The notes: generated by a model from the letters alone, not told the origin. Positions 45,618 through 64,000 are shown, numbered from the stretch's first letter. The stretch: 64,000 nucleotides of DNA from Bacillota bacterium (GCA_036830315.1 DAISOU010000001.1:14437-78436), one strand, 5' to 3'. Translations and numbers: made by a program.

Positions 45618-45695
45618 TGGTGCTCCCAAACGGATTTGAACCGTTGGCCTACCGCTTAGGAGGCGGTCGCTCTATCCAGGCTGAGCTACGGAAGC
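45618..45695 (-). tRNA. tRNA-Arg(CCT)
   Basis: Hand-folded cloverleaf; anticodon loop CTCCTAA, T-loop TTCAAAT, encoded CCA. Confidence 0.95.
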
Positions 45696-45758
45696 AAGTA
45701 GGCTTATTATAGGCTAACAATTAAAGCTTAACAATAACTATCTTATTAGTTTTTGCTC

Positions 45759-46880
45759 TTAGTTATCAGCTTTTTTCTTCTTGTCCTCATATAAAAGTTT
45801 ATCGGTGATCATTATCGCCTCTTCAAAGGGAAGAGGGTTGTCTTCCAAAGACAGTGAACCATAACTGAAGTTGATTTTTTCCTTGCCGGGATCAAGATTG
45901 GCATTCTTAGTGATTTTGTTCATTATCTGAGAAATACTTTTTCCGTTTCCGACCTGACAGATCAAGACAAACTCATCTCCGCCGTATCGGGAGACAAACG
46001 ATCTTCGGCTGACGGATTTTACCAGAGCCTGACTGAGTCTTATCAGTGCCTGGTCACCTTCCGTATGACCTTTTTCATCATTGATCCTTTTAAAATCATC
46101 GATGTCGATGAAAACAAGATATGTGTTCTTCTGGAGACGGGGGTGTTTTAATCTGGCATCATAGTATTTTTTGAGTTTGAGGCGATTATTAAGACCAGTC
46201 AGTGTATCTAAAGACATATGATATTCAAAGATGGTGATGAAGTTCATGAAAAGACCTAAGGTCAGTCCCATAATGCCTAAAGGAGTTTCAGGATAGAAAA
46301 ACTGAAGAAGCATTCCAATAGCCGGATAGAGAGGAAAAGTCGAAAAGACATAAGCTTCCTTTCTGATAAAGAGATTGTTGGTCTTCTTAGCCTGATAGAG
46401 AATATAGAAGGAACCGACCAGCATATAGGCAAAGATCAAGATGAGCTGCATATAAATGAAGGGACCTCTTTTATAGGCTCCGTTATCGGTGATAGTGAAG
46501 ACATATCCTGTAAAGGGGCTTGATATTGCAAGCCCTGAAAAAACCAGGACAGGAAGAGAAAACAGAAAGCTGATAAGCTTAATGTTTTTTATCTTTGCCG
46601 GACTGGAGCTAAGAGAAAAAAGAAACCACAGATAGGATATTATGACTGACCCGATAAGATAGATAATGCTGAAGACATAGTTTCCTATAACTGAGACCAA
46701 CCCATCATTTCCATTTAGGACAATGCTCAGAATATCAGAAACACCGATTATCATTGCCATCATCAGTACAGACAATACCAAAGGCTGGCCCTTGATTTCA
46801 AAATCAGGGCTGACAGTCTTCAAAGATACAACGGCAAGAATGATGAGACAGAAGACAATGACAACTATATATGTGGTCAT
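45759..46880 (-). CDS. Membrane-bound GGDEF diguanylate cyclase
   Basis: About seven TM segments, DTLTGLNNR, FIDIDDFK..ND..GH..GD, RYGGDEF. Confidence 0.9.
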   Translation of the reverse strand: MTTYIVVIVFCLIILAVVSLKTVSPDFEIKGQPLVLSVLMMAMIIGVSDILSIVLNGNDGLVSVIGNYVFSIIYLIGSVIISYLWFLFSLSSSPAKIKNIKLISFLFSLPVLVFSGLAISSPFTGYVFTITDNGAYKRGPFIYMQLILIFAYMLVGSFYILYQAKKTNNLFIRKEAYVFSTFPLYPAIGMLLQFFYPETPLGIMGLTLGLFMNFITIFEYHMSLDTLTGLNNRLKLKKYYDARLKHPRLQKNTYLVFIDIDDFKRINDEKGHTEGDQALIRLSQALVKSVSRRSFVSRYGGDEFVLICQVGNGKSISQIMNKITKNANLDPGKEKINFSYGSLSLEDNPLPFEEAIMITDKLLYEDKKKKADN

Positions 46881-46997
46881 CCGTTTGGTCCTTTTATGAC
46901 ATTATTATACATATCAGAAATAAGTCAGAAATATTTTTTGCTCATTTTTTATAGAAAACCCTTCCTCTGGCTTAATAATAAGTGAGGAGCTAATCTT

Positions 46998-48875: not shown

Positions 48876-48915
48876 TTGAAAGCCCCGGCGGTTTAGGTTA
48901 TGATTATTAATCGCT

Positions 48916-48999
48916 GGGGTTATGGCGGAATTGGTAGACGCGCTAGATTCAGGTTCTAGTGACAATATCATGGGGGTTCGAGTCCCCCTAACCCCACCA
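48916..48999 (+). tRNA. tRNA-Leu(CAG)
   Basis: GGGGTTA/TAACCCC acceptor, loop TTCAGGT, long variable arm, encoded CCA. Confidence 0.95.
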
Positions 49000-49010
49000 C
49001 ATATCAAATT

Positions 49011-49040
49011 GAGCCCTTGATTAAGGGCTTTTTTCTTTTT
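49011..49040 (+). terminator. Terminator after tRNA-Leu(CAG)
   Basis: GAGCCCTT-gatt-AAGGGCTT followed by a T-run. Confidence 0.75.
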
Positions 49041-49184
49041 TTGGCGCAAAAGTGGTACAAAATCAGTGTAGGGTGTAGGTTAAAAATCTACACCCCTTCA
49101 AAGAAAAAGCTGAGGTCCTCTTGAAATATTCCCTGCAAAGCGGATATTTCAGTCGTATGCCTCAGATTTTTTATCGGTGAGTCG

Positions 49185-49217
49185 AAAAACCGCCAGTGGC
49201 GGAATCTGGCGGTTTTT
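49185..49217. terminator. Orphan bidirectional terminator-like inverted repeat
   Basis: AAAAACCGCCAG-N9-CTGGCGGTTTTT, perfect 12-bp arms. Confidence 0.6.
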
Positions 49218-49569
49218 AGATTATTTCTAATCCATACTGAGAAGCAGAAGGCTCTTTATAGGATCCGTATTAACAATCGATATGCCCACTCGAAATACTA
49301 CCTGACATCTTGACCATTGATCTAAAAGGTCGTCATGATCAAGCGCGGCTTCTCGGTGAACAGGGCCTGGTGAAAGAGCACGATGTCTAGAAGACCTAAA
49401 TGAAAACGAAAAGACTGAAAATAATCTTTCCTTTCTTCTGGAAATTCATGATATTAATACCCGAGAATTCCTTGAATCAATAAAGAAACATCGTTTTTTT
49501 CATTGTCTAGTCTTTAAATCCAGCCTGATAAACGTTAAAATACTTTATGCCCATAAAAAGGAGCCACCT

Positions 49570-49647
49570 GCGCCCGTAGCTCAGCCCAGATAGAGCACAA
49601 GCCTCCGAAGCTTGGGGCCAAGGGTGCGAATCCCTTCGGGCGCACCA
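49570..49647 (+). tRNA. tRNA-Arg(CCG) with atypical D and T loops
   Basis: GCGCCCG/CGGGCGC acceptor, loop CTCCGAA, D-loop AGCCCAGATA, T-loop TGCGAAT, encoded CCA. Confidence 0.9.
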
Positions 49648-49655
49648 TAATTTGT

Positions 49656-49958
49656 ATGATAACTGCATTGATAAAGAAAATTCTTAACGCCATTGCCTCT
49701 ATGTCGCAAAAAGCCAGCATCGTTTATTGCTGGATTCTTACGACTTTGTTTTTCACTGCCATTGCAATCCTTCTTTCCGGAGTTATCAATCTAATGCCGG
49801 GCCATACTCCTACCTATGCGATAACGCTTTCGACTGTCGGTGGTTTTCTTTTGCTGGCTGTCACTTTTGTTATCTGTCTGACAACTATCTCTTCAAACTA
49901 TGTCAAACGAAAAGAGAAGAAAGAAAAGAAGCAGTCATCTGAAGACGAATCGAAGTAA
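49656..49958 (+). CDS. Small two-TM membrane protein between two tRNAs
   Basis: Two hydrophobic helices and a charged tail; no clear RBS, start uncertain. Confidence 0.5.
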   Translation: MITALIKKILNAIASMSQKASIVYCWILTTLFFTAIAILLSGVINLMPGHTPTYAITLSTVGGFLLLAVTFVICLTTISSNYVKRKEKKEKKQSSEDESK

Positions 49959-49974
49959 TCTTATCCTATTAACT

Positions 49975-50054
49975 GCGGACGTGGTGGAACTGGTAGACAC
50001 GTGGGACTTAGGATCCCATGAGCAATCATGCAGGTTCAAGTCCTGTCGTCCGCA
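49975..50054 (+). tRNA. tRNA-Leu(TAG), CCA not encoded
   Basis: GCGGACG/CGTCCGC acceptor, loop CTTAGGA, T-loop TTCAAGT; discriminator A followed by CGT. Confidence 0.92.
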
Positions 50055-50068
50055 CGTATTAAATGACT

Positions 50069-50295: not shown

Positions 50296-53205
50296 TTACA
50301 GATCGACAGAGGTAAACCCACTTACAGCCACTACTTCCTTAATTTTATTACCGCCATAATGAATAGTGACAGTCTTATTGTTCTTACCAGCATTCCAAAG
50401 AAGAACAACTTCTTTAAAACCATTATCGTAGACACTTCCTGCAACATTTGAGGTTATCTCAGCGTAAGAAGCTGAAGAATGATTCTTCAGCCCGTCCATC
50501 GCCTCCACCATCCAATAGGCACCGGACAATTCATTTGGATAATCATCACCAAGTATCTTATTATCGTCAAAGTTATAGATGGCTGTTGAAGAAGAACAGA
50601 GAGACTGGATGGACCACATATTGGAAAACCAGGTTTTAGGTGCTCCGCCTCTTTCTTTCAAAAAGGTATTATAGATCTTTGTCAGTTTCTTCTGCTCATC
50701 GTTTCCCAAAGCATAGGATGATAAGTATTCACCGGTTGGAAGCCAATGAATTCCATAGATGAATTCCGGACTTGGTCCAAACCAAGTCTGGTATTCGTTC
50801 TTGCCACCCCAGACCATGCCTAGAGCATGGACATTGGCACTTGCCGGTATGCCGCTGTCATACCAGTTAGTCTCATCATAATCAAACCAGTACTGTTTAA
50901 CAGAATATAGTTCAGTAGTGTATCCGTAGATGCTGGTATCTACTAATTCTGTATCGCCTGTTGCCAATCCAAACAGATAACCTGCCACCCAGGAATTAAG
51001 GGCTTCACCGCAGGATTCCTGATTATTGCCATCTCCGGCATCTCCGAATCCATCCGACCAACTATGGCCGGAATATGTGTCAAAAGTTCGTAGATATGGA
51101 TACATCTCATCATCTTCGTGATCATAGCTTTCATAGTCTTTCAGTAAGAGAGAAACCATACCTTTGTAGCTAGTCAGGAATGCAGAATCAAACATAGACA
51201 AAACTGCGCTGGCAAAAACCAGGTATCCGTGGGTGAAATGATGATCGCTTAATCTAGTTCCAGTCGAGAAGGCATCATCGCTATAGTACATGCTTCCCCA
51301 AGTATCGTTATAGTAAAGATAACGGGAATCATTTTCACCACTATAGGTGAACCAGTCATCTAAGATAAGACGGATCTTCTCAATAAAGTTGGCCTTGAGT
51401 CTTTCTTCATTCAACTGACTGGCGATAATAAGGCCTTGACTTAACGGATATAGAGCTTTGCTGTTCCAATATGGAGCCGTATTATCGAGATAGTCTTTAG
51501 AATCGACTTTATCGTCATAGACACCATCTGAGACCAAGTTATCATTGAGGCGGTTAAGATAAGAAACCATCTTGATCTTATCAAAGGTAGAAGAAGTCGG
51601 AGTCGTGAAGGAAGGGAGGACGCCTGCAAAACTCATGCTGGTATCAAAGCTATCGTCTGCCAGCATTTTAATCGTTCCTCTCATTGCTTCAACCGAATAT
51701 GGGGAAGGAGTCGAAGCTGTTTTCTTCCACTGATGAGGAAGAAGACCGAAAACGGAAGTCGCATCTGTTTTATCAATATGCTGGACATTGACAGAATAAT
51801 GAGTGTTGACTAAGCTCTTTTTATGGTCGACTGTGAAAGAGGAATTGGACCTGCAAGCCATTGAATAAGCATGCTGATGATAGAAGCTGACCATTTCCTT
51901 CGAGAAGGACTCCCCTAAAGGTGTAACGGAAAAATAATTTCCTTTTGTCGGAGCAATGGTCAGACGATCCAGGAAAGAACTGTCAGGATGAGAATTATGT
52001 TTGGGTGTAAAGACTGTGTTTTCAGGTGCATTGATCAGGAAAAACACATCCTTATATATAGGAGCGCCAAAGGAGACACCATTGCTGACACCATTGTCCT
52101 GATAACTATAACCGCGATGTCTTGATACCAAGGAGACGATTATTCCCTCAGAGGTTATAGGAGTCAGTCCATCTATCTGAGTGCCGTCAAGATTAAAGTA
52201 GCGATAACCGCCAGTCACGCCATCGATTGACAGATCGATATCAGTAGGAGCAGTTCCTTTGGTTTCAAAGAAGACATAAGGAGAACCCTGAGCATAGGTA
52301 ACAACCAAATCATCAATGTTATCGGCCTGATTCTTCAAAGCAACCCTCAAGCCGTTTTCGGAATATGACTGAACTTCAATTTTTGTATTACCGCTTTTAG
52401 CCGGCTTGATCTTCAGATCTCGAAAAGTGGGAGTGAAGTTTGAGATGGTCTTACTAGTATAGGAACCGTTATCAGCCATATCCTTATTAGTACGGTAAAC
52501 CTGGTCACCTCCGACTCCGACATCGGAGATTTCAACTCCGCCATCGATAAAACTGGAACGATACTGATTTATATATAGACCAGTATTAGATGGATTGGTA
52601 AAAAGTCCGCTATACCAAGAATTGGTAGGTATTGGGTTCTCTAATAAATCAGCCCGGATATTGTTAGGGTTGGCAGGGTTGGGGGCCTTAGTCGTACCGG
52701 TTGCATAAGAGCCATCTCCAATATTTACCTGAGTATTGGAAGAATGAGCCTTATTGTTAACTGGCGCCGTATAGGTTCCATTATCACTTACAGTAATAGT
52801 TCTTTGATTAGTTTCAGTCTTAGAATTGTAATCAAGAGTATAAGTCAAAACATAGGACCCGACTGTTCCATAATCCACATAACCGCTGCAACTTATATTA
52901 TCGGTTATATCTATACCAGTTGAAGAAGTAGCTGATACGCCTTCGAAAGCATCAAAATAGTGACCGGTCTTGATTGTAATATCATCGATGCCTTTAATCG
53001 AAGTGGGATCACCTGGTTCAACTGATGATGATGAATTCTGAGATTCTGAATCCTCACCTGTCGATATAGAAGAATCTACATTATTTGAATTTTCACAACT
53101 AGAGGGTGAACTATCAGTCCCTGAGCTTATGATACTTGAATTATTTCCGCAGCTGCAAAGTAAAAACACAGTAAGTAAGCTGATTGCTTTTCGAAGTTTT
53201 TTCAT
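50296..53205 (-). CDS. GH81 endo-beta-1,3-glucanase lipoprotein with DUF5011-type Ig domain
   Basis: Start MKKLRK after AGGAG; lipobox LCSC; Ser linker; PIPTNSWYS, SDHHFTHGY, RTFDTYSGHSW, NNQESCGEALN, GIHWLP motifs. Confidence 0.88.
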   Translation of the reverse strand: MKKLRKAISLLTVFLLCSCGNNSSIISSGTDSSPSSCENSNNVDSSISTGEDSESQNSSSSVEPGDPTSIKGIDDITIKTGHYFDAFEGVSATSSTGIDITDNISCSGYVDYGTVGSYVLTYTLDYNSKTETNQRTITVSDNGTYTAPVNNKAHSSNTQVNIGDGSYATGTTKAPNPANPNNIRADLLENPIPTNSWYSGLFTNPSNTGLYINQYRSSFIDGGVEISDVGVGGDQVYRTNKDMADNGSYTSKTISNFTPTFRDLKIKPAKSGNTKIEVQSYSENGLRVALKNQADNIDDLVVTYAQGSPYVFFETKGTAPTDIDLSIDGVTGGYRYFNLDGTQIDGLTPITSEGIIVSLVSRHRGYSYQDNGVSNGVSFGAPIYKDVFFLINAPENTVFTPKHNSHPDSSFLDRLTIAPTKGNYFSVTPLGESFSKEMVSFYHQHAYSMACRSNSSFTVDHKKSLVNTHYSVNVQHIDKTDATSVFGLLPHQWKKTASTPSPYSVEAMRGTIKMLADDSFDTSMSFAGVLPSFTTPTSSTFDKIKMVSYLNRLNDNLVSDGVYDDKVDSKDYLDNTAPYWNSKALYPLSQGLIIASQLNEERLKANFIEKIRLILDDWFTYSGENDSRYLYYNDTWGSMYYSDDAFSTGTRLSDHHFTHGYLVFASAVLSMFDSAFLTSYKGMVSLLLKDYESYDHEDDEMYPYLRTFDTYSGHSWSDGFGDAGDGNNQESCGEALNSWVAGYLFGLATGDTELVDTSIYGYTTELYSVKQYWFDYDETNWYDSGIPASANVHALGMVWGGKNEYQTWFGPSPEFIYGIHWLPTGEYLSSYALGNDEQKKLTKIYNTFLKERGGAPKTWFSNMWSIQSLCSSSTAIYNFDDNKILGDDYPNELSGAYWMVEAMDGLKNHSSASYAEITSNVAGSVYDNGFKEVVLLWNAGKNNKTVTIHYGGNKIKEVVAVSGFTSVDL

Positions 53206-53280
53206 TTGATTACTCCTAATGATGAATATTGAACGACTATAGGGCAAACTATTATAGACCATTGAATACCTATAGACTTA

Positions 53281-53329: not shown

Positions 53330-55510
53330 TTATTCAGCCAGAACACAGGACTGTGAGACGACTTCAAAGTAAGCGTCGGTGGTATCGGCCTTACCGGTGA
53401 AAACCTCACAAAGCTTGCAAGTCACATCATTCAAGGTGACATTGACAGTGAAAGTGTGATCGGCAGCAGCGACAAATTCAGCGCTGGGGAAACCTAATCC
53501 CATGACGATTTCAGTCGCACTGACGACAGTTTCTCCAACTAAGCCAGTTGAAGTCAAGGTAGCTCCGGTCGAAGTGACGATTTTTGCCGTGGTGTTATCA
53601 ACACAGCCAGCAGTCAGAGTATAGCCTTCAGCCCAAGTGACATGAGCCTTGAGCCAGGCTCCGCCGACACCCGAAGATAGTTTTACAGCAAAGCGAGTGG
53701 AGACATCTTCATCAGGGCCAGCAGCTTTGACAGTGATTTCAACTGTGGCCTTATATTCCTTAGAATCGATTGTCACAGAGGCAGTTATTATAGCTGTTCC
53801 TTCCTTGATACCAGTGACTACGCCAGTAGCAGAATCGACAGTTGCAATAGCTTCATCAGACGAAAGGAAGGCAATCGTTCCGGCACCGTATTTGATTTCA
53901 GCTGTCAAAGTGATGGTTTCACCGACTTTGACGGACTTCTTAGTAGAAGTGAAGTTCACTTCCGGACTTAAGACATCAAAGACATCTTCATCATGTTTTA
54001 AGACAGGCATGGTATTATCGGCAAAAGTGAAAACCGTATCCGATAAGGAAGCAAAGCTATCCTTGGTGCAGGAAGCAAAATCAACATTGTTTAAATTGGA
54101 GACGTGAGTATCAGCAATGGTTCCGCCGTTAGGATTGAAGGGCTTGAAGTTTTCATTAGCGGTATCGTGTGCAATATTGGTATAGCCGTTCTGAATCTTA
54201 AATTCACCAGCATCTGCAAATGAATAAGCAAAGAAGGGGAAACACATGGCATCGGGAGCCATCAAATTGGTGACGATGTTATTGATCTTGGCAGCACCGG
54301 AGATGCAGCTGGCAATAACTCCGTTTCTTCCCCAAGTCCAATCTGAAGCTGTACGAGTGTGAGCGGCTTCAAAAATACAATTTTCAATGCTTCCGCCATT
54401 GACTTCCTTAGCTAACAGACCAGAGAAACCAGCGGCATCGATGGCACCGATAAGATGAATATTTCTCATTACGCCGTTGAACAGCCAGAAGATACCAGTG
54501 GCTTTTTCTTTTTCGTTTTCGGAATCATTCCTGACATTGAAATTCTTGACCGTATAACCACAGCCATCTAAAGTGCCGGAGAAGACATTTCCTTCATTAG
54601 AGTTATTTTTAGCGCGTCCGTTTAAAACAGCACCATTCAAATCGATATTCTTTCCTAAAGCATACTTGCCATTGATTGTTCCTTTAGTCTCAACCATAGC
54701 CAAAAACTCGGAAGCAGTATTGATCTTAGTATAGCTATCATAATTAGCGGCAACAGTAAACTCCATTGAAGCGGGATATTCTTTGCCCTCATAAGTGGCA
54801 GTACAGGTGATAGTGGAAGATCCATAGTTTGTCGGTGTGACCCACTGGGAGTTTTCTTTAAATCCCGCAGCTACGGCTGAGCCGATAGCCACTGCATTTG
54901 AACTAGTCGCCCAAGCATAAGTAATAGAGGCATCAGCTTTGGCATTAACTAAAGTAGCAGTGACTAAGTTAGCGCCGCCCCCTTCAGTCAAATTGTTCTT
55001 ATCACCCTCTCTTAAAGCCAAAGTCAGACTGATCACAGCCTTTGCTTCTACCTTGACTGTCAAAGTACCAAACTTACTGGTATCAAAAACAGAAGTGGCT
55101 TTGATGACAGCAGTTCCATCACCGATACCAGTGACCACGCCATTATTATCAACAGTGGCTACTGTTTCCGTATCACTGGACCAAGTCACCTTCTGACTGG
55201 CCTCATCGACAACGACGACAGAAGCAGTAAAGGTAGCAGTGTCTCCGACTTCAATAGTATCCTTACCGGTAACAGTTACCGAAGTAACACTGGGATTCTT
55301 AATAGCTGTAGAACTAGAAGAATCGGGAGCAGGAGTAGATGATTCAATAGATGAAGCCGTAGTCTTATCAGATAAAACAGAACTTTGAGATGAAGAGGCT
55401 GCAGAAGAAGTAGGTGAAGAGCTTAATTTCTCCGATAAGGATGAAATATCTCCGCAACTCGCCAAGGACAATAAGCCTGAAGCTAAAACTAAAAGGATTT
55501 TCTTTTTCAT
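53330..55510 (-). CDS. Lipoprotein with Big_2 Ig domains and a central GLUG-like beta-helix domain
   Basis: Lipobox LASC; Big_2 VTWSSDTETVATVDNNGVVTG and FLSSDEAIATVDSATGVVTG; YTKINTASEF...YALGKNIDL...FSGTLDGCGYTV. Confidence 0.72.
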   Translation of the reverse strand: MKKKILLVLASGLLSLASCGDISSLSEKLSSSPTSSAASSSQSSVLSDKTTASSIESSTPAPDSSSSTAIKNPSVTSVTVTGKDTIEVGDTATFTASVVVVDEASQKVTWSSDTETVATVDNNGVVTGIGDGTAVIKATSVFDTSKFGTLTVKVEAKAVISLTLALREGDKNNLTEGGGANLVTATLVNAKADASITYAWATSSNAVAIGSAVAAGFKENSQWVTPTNYGSSTITCTATYEGKEYPASMEFTVAANYDSYTKINTASEFLAMVETKGTINGKYALGKNIDLNGAVLNGRAKNNSNEGNVFSGTLDGCGYTVKNFNVRNDSENEKEKATGIFWLFNGVMRNIHLIGAIDAAGFSGLLAKEVNGGSIENCIFEAAHTRTASDWTWGRNGVIASCISGAAKINNIVTNLMAPDAMCFPFFAYSFADAGEFKIQNGYTNIAHDTANENFKPFNPNGGTIADTHVSNLNNVDFASCTKDSFASLSDTVFTFADNTMPVLKHDEDVFDVLSPEVNFTSTKKSVKVGETITLTAEIKYGAGTIAFLSSDEAIATVDSATGVVTGIKEGTAIITASVTIDSKEYKATVEITVKAAGPDEDVSTRFAVKLSSGVGGAWLKAHVTWAEGYTLTAGCVDNTTAKIVTSTGATLTSTGLVGETVVSATEIVMGLGFPSAEFVAAADHTFTVNVTLNDVTCKLCEVFTGKADTTDAYFEVVSQSCVLAE

Positions 55511-55565
55511 TGTAATCTCCCTTTTACCAGCCTTTCAAAGAAAACTGGTTCAATGAACAGCAGTC

Positions 55566-55615
55566 ATTTTATAAAGGAAAAATAATAAAGTCAACGCAAT
55601 AAAAAAGGGCTTTCA
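55566..55615 (-). promoter_or_regulatory. Promoter of 53330..55510 with upstream operator
   Basis: TTGACT (55594-55589), 17 bp, TAAAAT (55571-55566); TGAAAGCCCTT at 55615-55605. Confidence 0.75.
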
Positions 55616-55619
55616 ATTA

Positions 55620-57005
55620 GTGGCAATTATTTGATTTCATTCTTGAAACAGCAAAAGCAAAGAAATGCAAAATAATAAGTTTAGATGATTATATTTATTT
55701 TACATATTGTAATTAATTCAAAAATACAAAAATCATAATCAAATGGCTTTTTTCATAAAATAGAAGCAATTATCAAAAAACATTTGGGTCCTGTTATTAA
55801 GAATGGTTTTTTCCGTTTTCCCTTCATTATAATTTTTGAATAAACGAACATACTTTAAGTTAAACAGCAGAGGTGCAAAAAAATAATGAATTGCTTATCA
55901 AAAGCCGATGTAATTTAAATAAATTTTCTTTTAATAATCATTTTATTTCCTGTAATTATCGTGTAAACCAACTTTATAATTTAAATTAAATGTTTATCAT
56001 TAAATAATTAAAAAAATTTATTTGTATGATTTCCAAATAACCCGAAATTAAATAAGTCTCAAGTGAAAAGCAAAAACAATTTTACTATAGAAAAATTAAA
56101 AAAGCTTAGTTATGTATTCAGTTTTTTTGCCTTATAACACTATTATTTATAATTTTTTTATTAATCGTGTTTTTTTAGGAAACTAGCTTTCATAAATATA
56201 TAATTTGTAACATGTTTTTAAGGATTTTTTCTATTTTTTTATTTCTGCTTCTGATCAAAAATTGACATATAAAATGGTATTATTTTCTTATAAAATTGTA
56301 GCCCTTTCTTGGTCTTGAGCAAAAGGTGTACATTATTTAAACTCAAACTTCAAAAATCTTACCAATCAAGTAAAAAAACATGTCTTCGGCGAAAAAGAAA
56401 AATTCAAATCTTTTTTGTCTTTTGTTCGATAATGTCTATTTTTTGAGATTTACATTCACTTTTAGATCGATTGATTGCAATCTGAAGATAAAGTTTTTTG
56501 GAAAATTTATAAATATAACAAACCAATGATTTTTCATTATGATCAAACCATTTTTGGCGTATGTTCTCCATTCCGTTTCTTTGGTTTCAAAATCAATCGC
56601 AAAGGCTCAACAGCGTTTACCAGCCGTTTATTCGATAATGTGACTTTTGTTAATATACTATTTCATAAAACAATTTCTGTTCAACAAACACACCAGAAAA
56701 GGCTTTCTTTATTAATAGTATTGAAGTATACGATCGTTGTTATTAAGTAATTCTCAATCAAAAAAGCAGTCATCAATTTACTTTTGAAACACATGAATTA
56801 TTATTGAAAAATAAGAAGGCTTGTTCTCTTGATTTCCTTTCCTTTTCAAATAATCTTTTACGACTTGCATTAATTAAAAGCCACAAAAAAAGAGCATGTC
56901 CATGCCCTTTTTCTTCGTCTGCTGAAGATAGTCAGAAAATATAGAAACCACTATTGAAGCTTACAATTCTAAACTTCAGTAAGATAGAAACACGCAAAAA
57001 AAGTT
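55620..57005. other. Very AT-rich, apparently non-coding spacer
   Basis: Two hand-counted 60-nt lines had 11 and 6 G+C; no credible ORF. Confidence 0.7.
56885..56912 (-). terminator. Terminator after the GH16 gene
   Basis: Minus strand AAAAAGGGCAT-ggac-ATGCTCTTTTTTT. Confidence 0.65.
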
Positions 57006-57009
57006 AATC

Positions 57010-57987
57010 CTAACTAATCCAATCATAGATTCTGACGTAATCAATCAACATTTCAGCACTAGTGAAAGAATCAGGAGGCATAACTCCATTATCAAAATTT
57101 CCGCCGACTGCCATATTCAGAAGGATGTGGAAAGGCTGATTAAAAGGAGAAGAATCATTTGTGGAATAAGAATCAGTATGCCAGGTAGAAGATGAAACTG
57201 TCATGAATTGGTTATCATCACAATACCAGGTAATGCCTTGTTCATTCCAAATGATGCCATAATTATGGTATTCGCCGATGGTAGTGTAATCTGTAAGTTT
57301 AAACACATTGGTACCTGCTTCATAAGCGTGTTGATTGTTGTCATTTGAATAATGAAGAGCTCCGGAAGTCTGATTAGTCAGCCTTCCTTTTGCTTCCATG
57401 ATATCGATTTCACCAGAATGAGGCCATCCCTGATTCTCATAGTTCTTTTCAGGCAACATCCAGAAAGCCGGCCATAATCCCTTGACTGCGGGAAGAGATA
57501 TACGCGCTTCAATCTTCCCATAAGTAGCTTTTACCTTCCCTTTAGTCCTCAGTCTTGAGGAAGTATAGGAATAACCGCCTACTGACTCTTTCTTAGCCGT
57601 AATAACTAATTTTCCGTCTCTGACTGAAGAATTGTTCCCCTGATAATATTCAGCCTCATTATTTCCCCAGCCCGAGATTCCGTAGGCATCACCGTTACCT
57701 GTCATGTTTTCCCAGATATTGGTATTCAGACTAGCTGAAGAAAATTCATCTGACCAGGATAGTTTCCATCCGGTCTCTTCACCTACTGAAGAAGATGAAG
57801 ATGATGTTGATGAACTTGCTTCAGAGCTGATTTCTGATGAAGAATCCTCCCCTATGCTGGATAGAGAACTATTTGAAGTAGACTCAGTGGAACTTTCAGA
57901 ACTCGAATTGGAATTACCTGAAAAGAGCATCTCACAGGAGTTAAGACTCATAAGGCTGATTAAGATTAAGGAACTGATTCTTTTCAT
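57010..57987 (-). CDS. GH16 beta-1,3-glucanase (laminarinase-type) lipoprotein
   Basis: Lipobox LNSC; Ser linker; WSDEF, GWGNNEAEYY, YTSSRL, WPAFWMLP, WPHSGEIDIME catalytic motif. Confidence 0.92.
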   Translation of the reverse strand: MKRISSLILISLMSLNSCEMLFSGNSNSSSESSTESTSNSSLSSIGEDSSSEISSEASSSTSSSSSSVGEETGWKLSWSDEFSSASLNTNIWENMTGNGDAYGISGWGNNEAEYYQGNNSSVRDGKLVITAKKESVGGYSYTSSRLRTKGKVKATYGKIEARISLPAVKGLWPAFWMLPEKNYENQGWPHSGEIDIMEAKGRLTNQTSGALHYSNDNNQHAYEAGTNVFKLTDYTTIGEYHNYGIIWNEQGITWYCDDNQFMTVSSSTWHTDSYSTNDSSPFNQPFHILLNMAVGGNFDNGVMPPDSFTSAEMLIDYVRIYDWIS

Positions 57988-58007
57988 GGTATATATTATC
58001 CTTTAAA

Positions 58008-58040
58008 CAAATAAGGCTGATTATTCATCAGCCTTATTTG
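58008..58040 (-). terminator. Intergenic hairpin between lipoprotein and GH16 genes
   Basis: CAAATAAGGCTGAT-N5-ATCAGCCTTATTTG. Confidence 0.7.
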
Positions 58041-58082
58041 AGCATTCTAACGGCAAAAGACAAACAAAACTAATAGATGCTT

Positions 58083-59516
58083 TTAAGCCAGGGCCTTAAT
58101 AGTAGGCATCTGATTTTCTTTGATATCAAAGATATGAGAATCCAAATCAGCATAAGAAGCGACAGTGGCATTAGTCCAATTGATTCCAGTGTGATAAGTG
58201 GTCTGATCTTCGACAGGGCTTCCCCATTCCCAGACAGATCCACCGACGACTGTAGAATCAGTATAGAAGTTGACAACTGAGAAAGCCTGAGTACTTTGTG
58301 CATTTGTTCCCTGAGAACCGCCAGCTGGATAAGCGACATCGGCAAAGATTGTCTTAAAGCCGGCTTCCGGAGTCTTGTTGACATTGACGACAATGTTGCG
58401 ATAAGTGCTGCCTTCCTTGAAGACACCAACTAAAGCGGAGTTGAAGGGGAACCACTTGTTGGCATCAATCAAAGACGAATTATCAAAAGTATGGGTTACC
58501 GAAACAAAGATGTTCTCTAAACTTCCAGAACAGGCCGCACAGATAGAAGAAGTGCCCCAGCCAGATCCCTTTTCTCCGATAGTAACGCCGTCAAATCCGA
58601 TGTTGGCGATGATTGATCCTGATTCAGTGGCGGAGAAGAAGCCGCCATTTGAATACTTGTCGGCAGTATTGCCAGTGACGGTGTAATTCTTAATTGAATA
58701 ACCCTGTCCGTCTAAAACACCGGCAAAGGAACTGTTGGTATAGGGAATGGTGTAATTTCCTAAATCAATATCAGAGGTAAGATAATAATTTCCGCTGATA
58801 GTAGCTCCTGTCAAGAGTTTGGTCTTAACATCGTCAGCTGTCGATAATGCGGTCCATCCAGTAGTGTGATCAGCCTTGACGAAGACAGGAATCGTCTTCT
58901 TGAAAGTATCCGAACCAACCTGGAAAGAAACCTGTATGGTATCGGAGCCAAAATTGTTGCAGCTATAGTTGACTGCGTTTGAAGTAGTGGAGCCAGTGAA
59001 GGTTCCCTTAGAATAAAGTGACTTCCAGTTATAAGTGATGGCGCCATCATAATCGGTGACAGTCGCAGTTAAGGCAATAGTATCCTTCTGGGTAGCCAAA
59101 GTCTTATCCGCTTCAATGGTGATGACAGGATTGACGACCGATATGACGTTGATATCTAAACTTGCAGAAACTGTGGCATCAGCTTTGGCAGTAGCCGTAA
59201 ACTTAGTTGTTCCGACTTTTTTTCCTGTAATCAAAACGGAACCATCGTTATTGATTGAACAAGTGGCGATAGAATCATCAGCCATCGCAATATCAAACCC
59301 GGCTTTAGTCGTATCACGGGTAAGAGTGACAGTTAAGTTAGTGGTTTTCCCAACCATGACAGTGCCTTCGCCAGTCAATTTGATCTTAATTTCCTGAGTA
59401 GTAGCTGAAGTTGAAGTACCAGATAAGTCGCCGCTATTGACAGAAGTACCGTTTTCACCACAACCAGTAACTAAGATTAATGAGGCAATAGCTAAGAATA
59501 AACCTGATTTTTTCAT
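58083..59516 (-). CDS. Lipoprotein with Ig-like domains and a GLUG-like beta-helix domain (paralogue-like to 53330..55510)
   Basis: Lipobox VTGC; Big_2 DDSIATCSINNDGSVLITG; WTALSTADD...YYLTSDIDL...FAGVLDGQGYSI. Confidence 0.72.
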   Translation of the reverse strand: MKKSGLFLAIASLILVTGCGENGTSVNSGDLSGTSTSATTQEIKIKLTGEGTVMVGKTTNLTVTLTRDTTKAGFDIAMADDSIATCSINNDGSVLITGKKVGTTKFTATAKADATVSASLDINVISVVNPVITIEADKTLATQKDTIALTATVTDYDGAITYNWKSLYSKGTFTGSTTSNAVNYSCNNFGSDTIQVSFQVGSDTFKKTIPVFVKADHTTGWTALSTADDVKTKLLTGATISGNYYLTSDIDLGNYTIPYTNSSFAGVLDGQGYSIKNYTVTGNTADKYSNGGFFSATESGSIIANIGFDGVTIGEKGSGWGTSSICAACSGSLENIFVSVTHTFDNSSLIDANKWFPFNSALVGVFKEGSTYRNIVVNVNKTPEAGFKTIFADVAYPAGGSQGTNAQSTQAFSVVNFYTDSTVVGGSVWEWGSPVEDQTTYHTGINWTNATVASYADLDSHIFDIKENQMPTIKALA

Positions 59517-59580
59517 TATTTACGTCCTCCCATAATAATGATGAAGAATAGAATCTGATGATTTCTATTTCATTGACCTG

Positions 59581-59631
59581 ATTATATTTTGGAACTTGGA
59601 AAAAAGTCCCAATATTTCGTAAGGGCTTTCA
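59581..59631 (-). promoter_or_regulatory. Promoter of 58083..59516 with the same upstream operator
   Basis: TATAAT (59586-59581); weak -35 GGGACT (59610-59605, 18-bp spacer); TGAAAGCCCTT at 59631-59621. Confidence 0.7.
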
Positions 59632-59650
59632 TTTTTTTCTTATTTGGTAA

Positions 59651-61492
59651 TCAACTTCTAGTCAAGACGAAATTGTCGAGCTGATAAACGACGCCTTTAT
59701 TGTTTATTCTAAGAATGTTCATCCCCTGATTGAAGGCAATTTCTCCAAAAGCGACGTCTTTGAACTGATCGACAGCGTTGGAAGTCAGTATCTCCACTCC
59801 TTCTTCTTTAATGGTCACATTGTTGAGAGTCATATCAAAGAGATTTACTGAATTTGTCTTAACCAGATTCAGATAGGATAAGGCCATGGTCAGTTTCAAA
59901 CTATAGCTTTCTTTCAGATACACGTATAAGAGAATTGAGGAATAGGAACTGGAATTGGAGATGAATAGACTGTTTGAGGCTTTACGGCTATAGTTTCTGA
60001 CCTCGTCTCCTAAAAGGATCAAGTCTTCTCCTTCCATCTTCAAAGTGGTGGTGGCTTCATCGATTCTGGTATTGAACAAAGTAAGACAATCCAAATCATA
60101 ATTGCCAGTGACAGAGATTACCTTCAAAGAGTGCTTTCCTTCCTGGATGACTATATTATTGACTAAGACATCGAAGAAATTGTAATAATCTGTCGGAACC
60201 AGGTTATAAGCTAAAGGAATTAAATCTTCGTCGTCCAGAGTAAATCTGATGACGTGAGAAATATCAAGCTCTTCTCCGACATAGGATAACCTGATAGCCA
60301 AACGTGAATAACAGGCTTCCAGAGTATGGAGAGTGAAGTCGACATAGGTACTTGGCCCGTTAAAGCCGACAATATCATGATTCGGGCCTGAGATCAAACA
60401 GCCGTTGACTAAGATAGCATCCTCGGCTTCAAACCTCTGATTGGAGATAACCGATGAGAGGTTGATGTCGCTGTTGAGAGTAATAGAATCCAAATAGAAG
60501 AATCCGCCCAGGTTTTTGAGAGTAATAGTGTTGCTTCCCTTGATCAAATTAATATACCCAAAGTCAAGACTGCTATAAGAATCCGTCATCGAGGAAAAAG
60601 GCTGATTGTTTATCTTCACATCATTGACAGTGATTTCAACACCCGGCGTATTACTGGATTCGCTCTTTTTCCGGGCTTGGATAGCTAATGAGCTTGTCGT
60701 TTTCTCATCGCTTGAGAAATAAAAGGAAATAGAATCATCCGGGCTTGTAAAGAAGACAGAGTATTTTGTCGAGGCCTTGTCATCAGTGACAATGACAGCA
60801 CCTTGGATATTCTGCTGTCTTTCAGCTTCAAAGACTTGTTTTTTCTCTCGGCTCTTAAAATCACCGCTTTGATAGCCGATCGATGTTTCCTTGGTTGTTT
60901 TTTCCTTTGAGGAAACCAATAAAAGATAATCGATAGAATAAGTGTTAGATAAGGCTGTTATCTTGATTTCGTTTTTTCCGGCACTGAGATTGACCAAAGC
61001 CAGAGTATTCTCCATGAAATCATATTCATCAAAGGAGGGATTGATTTTCAAAGGAAGTTTCACTTCGTTTGAATTCACGTTCAAAGTCATCAAGTTTGAA
61101 GCGGCAATCGCCTTTCCAGTCTGAGAAACATATGATGTCGCAACCACTAGTTTCGCTTCCATAGAATAGGAAACTGACACTTCCAAAGTCAGGGAGGAAC
61201 CGGTAAATAATTCGGTGACCACCTCTTGGTTAGAAGCGTGTATATTGTCCTTCACTTCCGCCGAGCCTGAGAGTTTTGCCGATTCGGCCTCATAAATCTG
61301 ACCCCCAGAGTCTTCTTTGAAAATCTTGGTGTCGCTGCGGTCAATGTATTCGTGATAGGAATAAGTCGGATAATCAGCCAGTGACATCTTCTGCATTATT
61401 GAAACACCGACAATAGAAAGGCAGATTGCAAAAGCGATGATGGTTCCGATGATAGAGAAGATAATATAAAACCGCGATGATTTCTTTTTCAT
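59651..61492 (-). CDS. Membrane-anchored protein with four CBM6/CBM35-like modules
   Basis: N-terminal TM; repeats start YEAESAKL, FEAERQQ, FEAEDAIL, MEGEDLIL and end ..IDYL / ..LDSI / ..LDCL / ..LDNF; no catalytic domain seen. Confidence 0.7.
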   Translation of the reverse strand: MKKKSSRFYIIFSIIGTIIAFAICLSIVGVSIMQKMSLADYPTYSYHEYIDRSDTKIFKEDSGGQIYEAESAKLSGSAEVKDNIHASNQEVVTELFTGSSLTLEVSVSYSMEAKLVVATSYVSQTGKAIAASNLMTLNVNSNEVKLPLKINPSFDEYDFMENTLALVNLSAGKNEIKITALSNTYSIDYLLLVSSKEKTTKETSIGYQSGDFKSREKKQVFEAERQQNIQGAVIVTDDKASTKYSVFFTSPDDSISFYFSSDEKTTSSLAIQARKKSESSNTPGVEITVNDVKINNQPFSSMTDSYSSLDFGYINLIKGSNTITLKNLGGFFYLDSITLNSDINLSSVISNQRFEAEDAILVNGCLISGPNHDIVGFNGPSTYVDFTLHTLEACYSRLAIRLSYVGEELDISHVIRFTLDDEDLIPLAYNLVPTDYYNFFDVLVNNIVIQEGKHSLKVISVTGNYDLDCLTLFNTRIDEATTTLKMEGEDLILLGDEVRNYSRKASNSLFISNSSSYSSILLYVYLKESYSLKLTMALSYLNLVKTNSVNLFDMTLNNVTIKEEGVEILTSNAVDQFKDVAFGEIAFNQGMNILRINNKGVVYQLDNFVLTRS

Positions 61493-62805
61493 TTGTTTTT
61501 GCCTCTGCTAATTGGAATAACACAGTCAACCTGAAACATTTTATCCGCTAGGAAAAGATATATGGTCCCCTTGTATTTATCAACGATCTTCCCCATAGAC
61601 CTAGTTCCAAAGCCATGGTTTTCCTTATCGGCCTTGTCAGTCTTGAGAAAATCGGAGGAATTGCTGTTTTCTTCCGCAAAGAAATTTTCACAGTGAATGA
61701 AGACCTTATTGTCGATGGCCTTGATTGTCAAAGATATAAAACGTTTAGTCGGATCAGTTATCTTGCTTTCATAATCAAGGGCATTGTCAAGCATATTGCC
61801 AAAGAGAGAATAGATATCCTGAGTATCCATAAAGTCGATGGCTTTTCCATCTGTCATACAGGTCAGGACAATCTTGTTTTTCTGACAGCGAAGAGATACG
61901 GAGGAGAGAATGACATCCAGAACTTCGTTTCCAGTTTGAACAATGGACTGATAGATATCGGCTGATTCCTCTAACTGATTGACGATTTTTTCATTCACAA
62001 TGCCAGTTGTCTTGATATCTTCAATCTGATGTTTCAAATCATGAACTTTGATGTTGATCATTTCCATGTTCTCTTTCTGAATCTCATAGTGCTTTCGGTC
62101 TTCTACCCAGATTTGTTTGATAACGGCTATTTCATCTTCTGACTCACCCTGATTCAATAAGGAATAGCAAATCAGGAACATCATCAGTCCATAGAAGACC
62201 TCGCAGATTATAAGCATCATGATATAGGAGGTTGTCGTCGCCTGGATATAAATTTCTATGGCTTCCATCGCTAGTGAGACAACTGAGAAGAAGATACTGA
62301 AGAATAGCAGGTCTTTTAGACCAATCTTATCGATTTTTTCCTGATATCGGGAAATAAAGAATCTCTGAGTGAAGGCTATGACAATGCAAAAGGACAACAA
62401 TTCGATCAGCAGATTGTAATATTCGTTAATGGTTGAAAAAGCATTGTTCAGGGAAATGACGATCAAAGATCCTATCTGTCTGGCCAGGAAGTGAGTCAAA
62501 CCCAAAGCACTTTCCGAAAAACAGGCATAGGCAATACTTGTCTCGTATAAGCTGACTATGGCAGCTGAATCCAGAATATAGAAAAGAAAGACAGTAACTA
62601 AAAGCCAATATGATTGCTGGTTTTCAGGAGCAAAAGAATAAAAATAAGGTAAGAGGAGAACGATTAAAAGACTCAAGGCAAAAAACAAAAAAGCCTTTAA
62701 GAGAAACAGTTTCCTTTTCTTTAATTCCTTTGCAGACAAAAAGAAGGAAATTAAAAACTCCACAAAGAACAATGATGAGTAGGCGACTAAATATAGATAG
62801 TTCAA
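61489..62805 (-). CDS. AgrC-like membrane sensor histidine kinase (GHKL domain)
   Basis: About seven TM segments; KVHDLKHQI H-box, LFGNMLDNA N-box, HGFGTRSM. Confidence 0.88.
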   Translation of the reverse strand: MNYLYLVAYSSLFFVEFLISFFLSAKELKKRKLFLLKAFLFFALSLLIVLLLPYFYSFAPENQQSYWLLVTVFLFYILDSAAIVSLYETSIAYACFSESALGLTHFLARQIGSLIVISLNNAFSTINEYYNLLIELLSFCIVIAFTQRFFISRYQEKIDKIGLKDLLFFSIFFSVVSLAMEAIEIYIQATTTSYIMMLIICEVFYGLMMFLICYSLLNQGESEDEIAVIKQIWVEDRKHYEIQKENMEMINIKVHDLKHQIEDIKTTGIVNEKIVNQLEESADIYQSIVQTGNEVLDVILSSVSLRCQKNKIVLTCMTDGKAIDFMDTQDIYSLFGNMLDNALDYESKITDPTKRFISLTIKAIDNKVFIHCENFFAEENSNSSDFLKTDKADKENHGFGTRSMGKIVDKYKGTIYLFLADKMFQVDCVIPISRGKNK

Positions 62806-63515
62806 GACAGAGACACTTTCTTTTCGTTCAGCTTGTTCAGGACATCTTTCTTTTTGTTACGGGAAAAAGAAATTGGAATCTTCCTGTTAGTCAGATAAGC
62901 TTTGTCTTTGTCAATCGATGTCACTTTCTGAATATTGATAATAACGGAATTGCTGCAACGGGAAAACATATCATCGGGAAGGGACGCTTTCGCGTTAGCC
63001 AAAGTTCCCCAGACTTCTACTTCTTCCTCATTATCGAGATAATAAATCAATAAGTGGTCTTTGATTTCGACATAGAGAATTGAAGACAAGGAAACTTTTT
63101 TAGCTCCGCCGGTGGTCTTGAGAATGATTTCCTGATCTTTGTTTGATCCGACTATCTTCATTGTTTTGATCATCAAAGATTCAAAACGTGCATATTGAAT
63201 AGGTTTCAAAACATAGTCGATAGCATCGACTTGGTAGCCTTGAATCGCATACTGAACCAAGTTGGTAATAAAGATCAAAGGGACATTGCGGTCTTTTTCA
63301 CGTAATTTTTTAGCTACTTCCATACCATTCATATGAGGCATCTCAATATCCATGAAAATCAAATCAAAGTTCTTGCTTTCGTCTAAAAAAGAAAGACCTT
63401 CCTTATAGTGGGTGATGCTGAAAAGAAAATTATTATCCTCTCCAAATTTTAAAAGAAAGCCCTTAAGCGTTTCAAAAGCTTCGTCCTCGTCTTCGACAAT
63501 TGCAGTTTTAATCAT
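62802..63515 (-). CDS. LytTR-family (AgrA-like) response regulator
   Basis: IVEDE, FMDIEM, IDYVLKP receiver; ILYVE...H, FSRCSNSVIIN LytTR domain. Confidence 0.92.
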   Translation of the reverse strand: MIKTAIVEDEDEAFETLKGFLLKFGEDNNFLFSITHYKEGLSFLDESKNFDLIFMDIEMPHMNGMEVAKKLREKDRNVPLIFITNLVQYAIQGYQVDAIDYVLKPIQYARFESLMIKTMKIVGSNKDQEIILKTTGGAKKVSLSSILYVEIKDHLLIYYLDNEEEVEVWGTLANAKASLPDDMFSRCSNSVIINIQKVTSIDKDKAYLTNRKIPISFSRNKKKDVLNKLNEKKVSLS

Positions 63516-63556
63516 AATGAAAAGTCAGCACTCTCTTTCCTAATTTTACCAAGGGA

Positions 63557-63565
63557 ATTATAACA
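63557..63565 (-). promoter_or_regulatory. Extended -10 promoter of the LytTR-kinase-CBM operon
   Basis: TGtTATAAT on the minus strand about 40 nt upstream of the start codon. Confidence 0.55.
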
Positions 63566-63648
63566 CAAATAGTTTTCCTGATTTTTTGCAAACTGATCAA
63601 TATTGGAAAAGAACAAGCATAGTGTTAATGAAGTACACTGCTGTTTCC

Positions 63649-64000
63649 TTATTCGATCTTATTGTCCTTCAGTTTTTCGATATCATCCTTGACAAGTCTG
63701 AAAATAATCCATTCATCCATACTTTTGGCATTCATCGATTTATAGAACTTTATCGATGGGGCATTCCAATTCAAACAGACCCACTCCATCCTTTCACATC
63801 CGTTATCAAGAGCAATCTGAGCTAAGAAACTGAAGGCTTTTCTACCTAAACCCAGATGTCGGTATTCAGGGAGAATATAGATATCTTCTACATATAAACC
63901 TCGGTGTCCTTTAAAGGTTGAGAAATTATAAAAATAAACTATATATCCGACTTTCTTTGAATCTAGTTTAATGAAGTAGACATAAGCCGCTTCTTTTTTG
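63649..64000 (-). CDS. GNAT diamine/spermidine N-acetyltransferase-like protein (5' end cut by window edge; absent from ORF track)
   Basis: Hand translation ...YFYNFSTFKGHRGLYVEDIYILPEYRHLGLGRK...MEWVCLNWNAPSIKFY...KIE*. Confidence 0.88.
   Translation of the reverse strand, partial: KKEAAYVYFIKLDSKKVGYIVYFYNFSTFKGHRGLYVEDIYILPEYRHLGLGRKAFSFLAQIALDNGCERMEWVCLNWNAPSIKFYKSMNAKSMDEWIIFRLVKDDIEKLKDNKIE

Follow-up and report, generated by a model that had tools for sequence, protein, structure and literature searches.

Gene Organization of the Locus

Herein, we describe a three-gene unit encoding a LytTR-family response regulator, a histidine kinase, and a membrane protein built of carbohydrate-binding modules (CBMs), hereafter termed the partner, which lies at positions 59651-63515 of a 64,000-nt stretch of DNA from a Bacillota bacterium (GCA_036830315.1 DAISOU010000001.1:14437-78436). 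This whole stretch is referred to as the window. The triplet is followed on the same strand by genes for surface lipoproteins and for endo-β-1,3-glucanases of glycoside hydrolase (GH) families 16 and 81 (Table 1), and it probably represents a mode of polysaccharide sensing not yet described in Gram-positive bacteria.

The three minus-strand open reading frames (ORFs) proposed in the initial annotation are all present, encoding 237, 438, and 613 aa. That annotation also placed ATGA stop/start overlaps at both junctions, which holds for the kinase/partner junction (context AAATGA), where the partner ATG at 61492-61490 overlaps the kinase TGA at 61491-61489 and AGAGG is found 8 nt upstream of the partner start, whereas the four bases shared by the regulator and kinase genes at 62802-62805 read TTGA (context TCTTGA), with the kinase starting from TTG at 62805. 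One database copy of the kinase is only 416 aa long, being 22 codons shorter and starting at codon 23; because alignments with the kinase homologues begin at residues 1-4 and E16 in the first helix is conserved among them, the 438-aa form and its 4-nt overlap with the regulator gene are likely to be real.

Table 1. Features of the locus, in window positions (AF2, AlphaFold2; TM, transmembrane; ORF, open reading frame).
Feature	Position	Strand	Remarks
Regulator	62802-63515	-	237 aa, ORF
Kinase	61489-62805	-	438 aa; TTG start overlapping the regulator TGA (TTGA)
Kinase helices (AF2)			residues 3-25, 34-56, 61-86, 91-122, 128-154, 163-187, 192-267
Kinase motifs			H255 in HDLKH; N-box GNMLDNALD 336-344; G-box GFG 398-400
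Partner (third protein)	59651-61492	-	613 aa; ATG overlapping the kinase stop (ATGA)
Partner TM helix	61397-61474	-	residues 7-32; hydropathy, AF2, column counts over 42 family members
Juxtamembrane motif YPTYSYHEYIDRS	61334-61372	-	residues 41-53
CBM6/35-like module 1	60914-61303	-	residues 64-193; conserved EAE...GxN...D pattern
CBM6/35-like module 2	60470-60841	-	residues 218-341; AF2, PDB profile, cross-matches
CBM6/35-like module 3	60074-60442	-	residues 351-473; AF2, PDB profile, cross-matches
CBM6/35-like module 4	59657-60046	-	residues 483-612; AF2, cross-matches
Candidate LytTR operator	59614-59650	-	directly 3' of the partner stop, upstream of the enzyme genes
Proximal half-site TTACGAAAT	59614-59622	-	perfect
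Distal half-site ATAAGAAAA	59635-59643	-	degenerate; 21 bp from the proximal one
-10-like TATAAT	59581-59586	-	~27 bp downstream of the operator; -35 poor
Stem-loop/palindrome AGAAATC-ATCA-GATTCT	59541-59573	-	between the -10 and the lipoprotein ribosome-binding site
477-aa surface lipoprotein	58083-59516	-	lipobox LVTGC; first gene of the presumed regulated unit
GH16 laminarinase-type endo-β-1,3-glucanase lipoprotein	57010-57987	-	Pfam GH16 2.2e-20
Terminator-like hairpin	56885-56914	-	3' of GH16; ends the lipoprotein-GH16 unit
Big_2 surface lipoprotein, 726 aa	53330-55510	-	Pfam
GH81 endo-β-1,3-glucanase	50296-53262	-	Pfam

The Partner Protein

The AF2 model of the partner, with a predicted local distance difference test score (pLDDT) of 77, is composed of about six cytoplasmic N-terminal residues, a single helix, and four all-β modules. 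The N-terminus contains no conserved Cys among the 42 family members, on account of which the partner is predicted to be an uncleaved signal anchor rather than a lipoprotein. The juxtamembrane segment between the helix and the first module follows the family consensus [YF]PxYxYx[ED]Y[VI]DR[ST], which is continued by GAQLYEAE; across the 42 family representatives, conservation of Y44, Y46, and Y49 reaches 90% or more.

Foldseek comparison of single modules retrieved CBM35 structures, including 2w1w (TM-score 0.79, root-mean-square deviation 3.1 Å) as well as 3zm8, 2w47, and 4qaw, and the profile of the partner family also matched the CBM35 of 3zm8 by sequence in the PDB (E 4e-6). In Pfam, CBM_6 was recognized in 17 of the 42 family members (best 6.7e-11) and CBM_35 in 15 (best 3e-10), while the four modules of the partner are mutually homologous, with cross-matches at E 1e-20 to 1e-34. 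The CBM6/35 fold typically binds polymers or chain ends, and the conserved EAE, GxN, and D positions of each module resemble a calcium-site pattern. The Pfam/NCBIfam scan recognized no catalytic domain in the partner, and no paralogue of its CBM array occurs elsewhere in the window. A protein with one N-terminal TM helix, four CBM6/35-like modules, and no catalytic domain had been anticipated by the initial annotation, and the AF2 model, the Foldseek matches, and the Pfam hits of the relatives agree with this description, including the expectation that the modules fold as CBM6/35-type β-sandwiches.

The Kinase and the Regulator

The kinase belongs to the GHKL ATPases (Pfam HATPase_c_5, 3.8e-21). 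Its AF2 model, which was built with 36 homologues and reached a pLDDT of 83, places seven TM helices within residues 3-215, connected by loops of at most eight residues, and therefore matches the multi-TM protein without a large extracellular domain that had been proposed from the sequence. The seventh helix continues as a long DHp helix carrying H255 (HDLKH), which is followed by a second helix and an α/β ATPase domain in the model, and H255, D256, H259, N337, N341, G398, and G400 are invariant in the 36 homologues. The top Foldseek match of the kinase is the cytoplasmic module of Staphylococcus aureus AgrC (6e52/6e95), marginally ahead of other kinases; a PDB sequence search with the kinase returned no match.

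The regulator is composed of a receiver and a DNA-binding domain (Pfam Response_reg 2.4e-19, LytTR 9.2e-15), with the phosphoacceptor Asp56 in FMDIEMP and Lys104 in VLKP. In NCBIfam it matches BtsR, LytR, and AgrA only at scores well short of the respective cut-offs, and it is therefore a LytTR-family member without orthology to any named one.

Conservation of the Triplet

A word-indexed search retrieved only six relatives of the partner, while an exhaustive profile search yielded about 40 full-length cluster representatives of 599-628 aa, together with partner-type modules in large multidomain proteins. The neighbourhoods that were read surround the partner relatives and kinase homologues at 51, 48, 45, 39, 36, and 46% identity, and come from species-representative genomes and metagenomes, the metagenome loci having been found with a 15-sequence subset of the 42-sequence partner alignment. 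Gene order in all of these loci, which are designated by L numbers, was established by tblastn of the window proteins.

Wherever upstream DNA is available in a related locus (L001-L023 and L026-L042), the regulator, kinase, and partner genes are contiguous and co-directional, with their order unchanged. The triplet loci number about 26 distinct ones, with partner identity down to 25%, so the LytTR-GHKL-CBM arrangement called for as a check is conserved, and the records are metagenome-assembled genomes labelled Bacilli, Clostridia, Eubacteriales, or Bacillota from digester, rumen, and gut samples. The recurrence of the three-gene arrangement in each informative related locus far exceeds what chance would give. 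In nearly all loci the kinase/partner junction shows an NTGA overlap with a GGAGG-like site upstream, as expected for the translational coupling of the two genes that had been proposed, and the regulator/kinase junction is more variable; the retained overlap suggests stoichiometric co-expression of the kinase and the partner.

The composition of the partner varies in a characteristic manner. Several loci encode partners of only two modules (340-380 aa), in which the TM helix and the juxtamembrane motif are retained, and lipoprotein paralogues of the four-module array, which are likely to be surface glycan binders, are found within the triplet loci L017 (12971-15022), L015 (3892-5928), and L009 (5178-7199), where the juxtamembrane motif is absent in that exact form. 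On these grounds, the membrane-proximal part is the constant part of the partner, and the module array is variable and common to non-signalling surface proteins.

The neighbours of the triplet are always β-glucan genes. In the close clade they are the 477-aa lipoprotein and GH16, and in the other clades an N-terminally anchored, domain-permuted GH3 of ~1000 or 1700 aa, sometimes with CBM6, together with CBM6/35 or Big_3 lipoproteins. Judged from these gene families, the substrate theme appears to be β-1,3- or mixed-linkage glucan, and the gene context points to the same polymers as putative ligands of the partner modules. Although the enzyme genes differ from clade to clade, the partner gene remains associated with that of the kinase.

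Candidate Operator and Transcription Units

The spacer 3' of the partner gene measures 134 bp and contains a DNA stretch, TACCnAnnAnGnAAAAnnTGnAAGnCCTTACGAAA, that is near-invariant in eight loci whose proteins are 38-60% identical; TAnAAT is likewise invariant at the -10 position of this footprint alignment. In the distant loci, two copies of GTTAYGAAAT, 21 bp start to start, point to the enzyme gene, being located either directly 3' of the partner stop or, where a GH3 or surface-protein gene is divergently oriented, in the spacer in front of it. Direct repeats of 9 bp separated by a 12-bp spacer are the known site geometry of LytTR regulators such as AgrA, ComE, and PlnC/D, and the candidate repeats may accordingly be taken as the putative binding site of the regulator. 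An earlier register, in which the operator was read as 14-bp units on the opposite strand, was replaced by the 9-bp sense-strand register from the distant loci.

A position weight matrix (PWM) was built only from L009, L017, L020, L023, and L025. In the held-out loci L016, L018, L019, L039, and L040, the top PWM match was found at the same position with scores of 30.7-34.4, compared with a best score of 21.7 in 200 shuffles of a 64-kb sequence, and weaker sites occur at the same position in L015, L029, L031, and L033. The best-scoring repeat of the window itself, GGTTATGAAG at 28359-28390 (minus strand, 21 bp apart, score 18.2), lies within a coding region and inside the shuffle range, and is probably a chance match.

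Two transcription units are likely to be present, namely regulator-kinase-partner and a regulated lipoprotein-GH16 unit. Since the partner gene lies upstream of the candidate operator, it would belong to the regulator unit and stand outside the regulated one. A plain terminator was considered for the conserved element and rejected, as its 3' arm is non-complementary in L001, L003, L008, and L010 while the 5' part is invariant; for the same reason the element is read as a candidate protein-binding site, which perhaps also serves as a terminator in some lineages, a stem with a T-run being seen in L005-L007 and, weakly, in the window. Further downstream, a hairpin is predicted at 59541-59573 in the window and at the same place, with differing sequences, in six of six other related loci that were folded (z -0.2 to -4.1; L010, the eighth locus of the set, was left out), and it could be a 5' mRNA stabilizer or a second operator. 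An Rfam scan of 55400-64000 returned nothing relevant.

Upstream synteny with the 83%-identical L010 ends at window position 63592. In L010 (5700-5965) and other relatives, the regulator is preceded by a further paired-repeat site together with a surface-protein or GH3 gene in divergent orientation, at which place the window has a GNAT acetyltransferase gene and no site.

The same spacer bears on a further explanation, namely a conventional Agr-like pair for peptide quorum sensing, the peptide gene having escaped notice and the CBM protein being unrelated cargo. The families of the kinase and the regulator would suit it, AgrC/AgrA-type pairs usually sensing peptides, as would a 16-codon ORF, MKALTKYWDFFPSSKI (MKALTK...), at 59582-59632 on the minus strand, which overlaps the candidate operator. 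This ORF is nevertheless conserved only over the footprint (its first six codons), has a stop at codon 2 in L008, lacks a start in L003, and is absent in the distant loci, and is probably not a gene. Moreover, in agreement with the initial annotation, no agrB/agrD-like gene was found in the 485 nt available upstream or within ~8 kb in the annotated related loci, none of which encodes AgrB, a peptidase-type ABC exporter, or an AgrD-like protein. The peptide explanation is thus highly improbable.

Proposed Mechanism and Its Alternatives

On balance, we regard it as reasonably probable that the triplet is a partner-assisted kinase module controlling surface β-1,3-glucan-degrading genes. In the proposed mechanism, the partner would sit beside the seven-TM kinase, which has no outside domain, through its one helix, exposing its four CBM6/35 modules outside the cell. 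Binding of polymeric β-glucan to the modules would alter the contact of the TM/juxtamembrane segment of the partner with the kinase helix bundle, which would set the autophosphorylation of H255 and the transfer to D56 of the regulator. The phosphorylated regulator would then occupy the two 9-bp direct repeats 21 bp apart and activate the weak promoter of the lipoprotein-GH16 unit, or, in the relatives, the membrane-anchored GH3 gene. Within this scheme, the physical contact of partner and kinase, the binding and specificity for glycan, and the occupation of the repeats by the regulator are inferred, and the partner may either activate or inhibit the kinase.

Co-variation was assessed with pairwise distance matrices from 21 non-redundant triplets. 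When the cytoplasmic domain was controlled for, partner residues 1-63 co-varied with the kinase TM domain (partial Spearman 0.35, permutation p ≤ 0.0005), in contrast with the converse comparison, for the cytoplasmic domain with the TM domain controlled for (0.03, p = 0.35); the positive control, regulator against kinase, gave 0.70 with the cytoplasmic domain and 0.22 with the TM domain. This pattern would fit a partner N-terminus that contacts the kinase helix bundle, and it is no more than suggestive because a shared evolutionary rate can yield part of the signal.

Several observations weigh against the partner-assisted module. Regions with similar rates of evolution can show exaggerated co-variation of their distance matrices. 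The kinase TM region is weakly conserved, with a mean top-residue fraction of 0.33 and only E16, F34, F96, F150, and Y205 at 70% or more, and it presents no evident conserved surface on which the highly conserved partner motif could dock. The operator pair of the window scores 11.9 with the PWM, a chance-level value for the window obtained with a matrix from distant loci, and the case for this operator is made by the phylogenetic footprint and the position instead of the score; upstream of the window regulator or of the Big_2-GH81 genes, the PWM scan detected no site above chance. The window partner itself reaches 17.2 bits for CBM_35, below the Pfam cut-off of 28. In addition, kinase-regulator pairs without a partner adjoin the same kind of GH3 in L024 (6288-8323) and L025 (6286-8362), where the GH3 is divergent and, in L025, two TTACGAAA repeats 21 bp apart face it. 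These pairs are distant (P0120 of L024 at 29% identity; P0074 at 40% over the cytoplasmic half), and because they sit beside GH3, the kinase lineage can evidently work without the partner, which may consequently serve as an auxiliary co-sensor and not as the only receptor. Together with associations reported from Butyrivibrio (PMC2914790) and Roseburia (PMC5320581), the partner-less loci imply that the link between this regulator type and GH genes is older and wider than the partner, the latter being an addition in part of the lineage.

The partner-less pairs would also be accommodated if the partner were a co-transcribed surface glycan binder that holds polymer near the enzymes while the kinase senses, for example, a released oligosaccharide. 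The lipoprotein CBM arrays of the related loci, as a non-signalling use of the array, and the scarcity of conserved kinase TM residues that could dock a partner are in keeping with such a role, which is difficult to reconcile, however, with a partner gene whose start overlaps the kinase gene in almost every locus, whose association with the kinase outlasts changes in the enzyme genes, and whose position upstream of the candidate operator places it outside the regulated unit. Moreover, the partner is TM-anchored in loci whose remaining surface proteins are lipoproteins, its motif is missing from the lipoprotein paralogues, and its N-terminus co-varies with the kinase TM domain. We therefore consider a pure surface-binding function, the foremost of the alternatives, unlikely.

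Single-pass accessory inhibitors of sensor-less kinases are common, as exemplified by LiaF for LiaS and YycHI for WalK, and the partner might by analogy be a constitutive brake or scaffold of the kinase, whose modules serve wall or capsule contact and not the sensing of nutrient glycans. The sub-threshold Pfam score of the window partner could be cited in its favour, but family members reach CBM_6 or CBM_35 at 1e-10 to 1e-11, the fold matches CBM35, and the module always occurs within β-glucan-degrading loci, where the same array is carried on enzymes and surface lipoproteins. A constitutive brake is accordingly quite improbable.

The partner-assisted module thus remains the preferred reading, and the proposal of the initial annotation that the CBM protein is the receptor signalling through the kinase survives in part: the CBM fold, the conserved triplet, the co-variation, and a partner gene that follows the kinase and lies 5' of the candidate operator speak for it, and the partner-less GH3-side pairs speak against a general requirement. 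A wider generalization, which we put forward only tentatively, is that the triplets constitute a widespread and as yet undescribed class of polysaccharide sensors in Gram-positive bacteria, where a membrane-tethered CBM array makes a glycan sensor of an AgrC-type, normally peptide-sensing seven-TM kinase, with the Tyr-rich juxtamembrane segment YPxYxYxEY[VI]DRS acting as a tethered pseudo-ligand or lever on the kinase helix bundle and the module number (two or four) tuned to the polymer.

Neighbouring Genes

The 477-aa lipoprotein shows a weak Ig-like Pfam match only and no match in a PDB sequence search; it is 54-59% identical within the closer clade (91% in the near-identical L010), where it is always located 3' of the partner. 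The closest PDB entries of the GH16 enzyme are the laminarinases 6jh5 (2.5e-54) and 2vy0 (3.8e-52), and that of GH81 is the endo-β-1,3-glucanase 6fop (BH0236, 9.5e-65). The 726-aa lipoprotein, which also has no PDB sequence match, is a distant paralogue of the 477-aa one (24% over 450 aa), both containing Ig-like domains and no recognized catalytic or binding domain.

The GH16 terminator is separated from the Big_2 lipoprotein gene by a 1.5-kb non-coding stretch (55511-57009) of 23-26% GC without an Rfam match; L010 has a 1025-aa lipoprotein gene at this position, and only a 132-bp patch (56292-56423) is common to both. Just upstream of GH81, a 625-aa ORF is flanked by the tRNAs Arg-CCT, Leu-CAG, Arg-CCG, and Leu-TAG (45618-50055). 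The rest of the window is ordinary chromosome, including SecY, a GH13 α-amylase-family gene (Pfam Alpha-amylase), GH2, an ABC transporter with two BPD_transp_1 permeases, and a PAS/HisKA kinase.

Among the related loci, a membrane-anchored GH3 accompanies the LytTR systems of L001, L006, L007, and L014-L025, and the permuted anchored form was located in L014 (5604-8711), L015 (9915-15128), L017 (9944-12925), L018 (9244-12219), and L020 (9250-12288). In these enzymes the GH3 C-terminal domain precedes the N-terminal one, as in the subfamily described for a rumen enzyme (PMC5104943).

Significance and Comparison with Known Systems

The detection of polysaccharides, in particular insoluble or polymeric glycans, is far less understood in Firmicutes than in Bacteroidetes, and among CBM-bearing sensors, to our knowledge, only the RsgI anti-sigma factors of cellulosome producers have been studied well. 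If the proposed mechanism is true, the triplet would represent a second route, leading from a CBM array through an AgrC-type kinase to a LytTR regulator, in uncultured Bacilli and Clostridia of the rumen, gut, and digesters, and it would imply that a partner protein can drive the AgrC-type helix bundle, which is otherwise known as a receptor for peptides. Being compact and equipped with a candidate operator, the three-gene unit could also be reused as a β-glucan-responsive switch.

Literature on LytTR systems with CBMs, laminarin, or polysaccharide sensing yielded no description of a triplet of LytTR regulator, AgrC-type kinase, and CBM protein, and LytTR/AgrC-type systems are unmentioned in a 2024 review of bacterial hemicellulase regulation (PMC10766802). 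In Butyrivibrio proteoclasticus, three LytTR regulators were each reported in 2010 near a secreted TM-anchored GH3, in the polysaccharide utilization loci PUL7, 21, and 33 (PMC2914790), and a Roseburia survey noted a LytTR regulator in one Gram-positive locus, gpPUL Ros-7 (PMC5320581). These loci share with many of the related loci read here a LytTR two-component system beside a TM-anchored GH3, but the reports describe adjacency only, with no third CBM component, operator, or mechanism. The novelty suggested in the initial annotation is therefore narrowed: the third component and its wiring appear undescribed, whereas the link between LytTR regulators and anchored GH3 had already been noted.

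The hybrid two-component and SusR-type sensors of Bacteroidetes (PMC10766802) similarly wire glycan sensing to a polysaccharide utilization locus, but their sensor domain is fused to the kinase, they bind oligosaccharides in the periplasm, and they belong to other protein families. The HdrRM/BrsRM systems pair a LytTR protein without a receiver with a membrane inhibitor and no kinase, whereas a receiver domain and a kinase are present here.

Judged by domain families, the triplet belongs to the AgrC/AgrA-type two-component systems but fails the peptide-signal feature. In common with AgrC/AgrA, ComD/ComE, and PlnB/PlnCD (HPK10 kinases with LytTR regulators), it has a polytopic kinase without an outside domain, HATPase_c_5, and a REC-LytTR regulator. 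The candidate operator, whose paired 9-bp repeats with a 21-bp period are strong in the relatives and degenerate in the distal half in the window, may be of the same kind as theirs. It differs in that the genes for peptide precursor, processing, and export are absent from the 485 nt upstream and from the annotated related loci, and in that a third, coupled membrane protein with a CBM array and glycoside hydrolase targets are found instead.

In its presumed mode of action, the triplet is closer to two other systems. RsgI of Clostridium thermocellum is a single-pass CBM-bearing sensor that reports insoluble polysaccharide to enzyme transcription through SigI (PMC6852018, PMC10328401), and like the partner it exposes carbohydrate-binding modules of the same types as those found on the enzymes; RsgI, however, has a cytoplasmic anti-sigma domain and signals to SigI by regulated proteolysis, whereas the partner has a tail of ~6 residues, no adjacent sigI, and a kinase with a LytTR regulator. 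XylFII-LytS-YesN of Clostridia is a binding-protein-dependent three-component sugar sensor (PMC11847368, PMC3656788), which resembles the triplet in the extracytoplasmic sugar-binding protein encoded with a kinase-regulator pair, in the kinase without a ligand domain of its own, and in the carbohydrate-use targets, but which employs a periplasmic-binding-protein fold for mono- and oligosaccharides, a LytS/YesM-type kinase, and an AraC-type regulator, Pfam domains of these kinds not being encoded here. By analogy, the triplet would thus work like RsgI/SigI and the three-component sensors, while, because their defining domains are absent, it is a member of neither.

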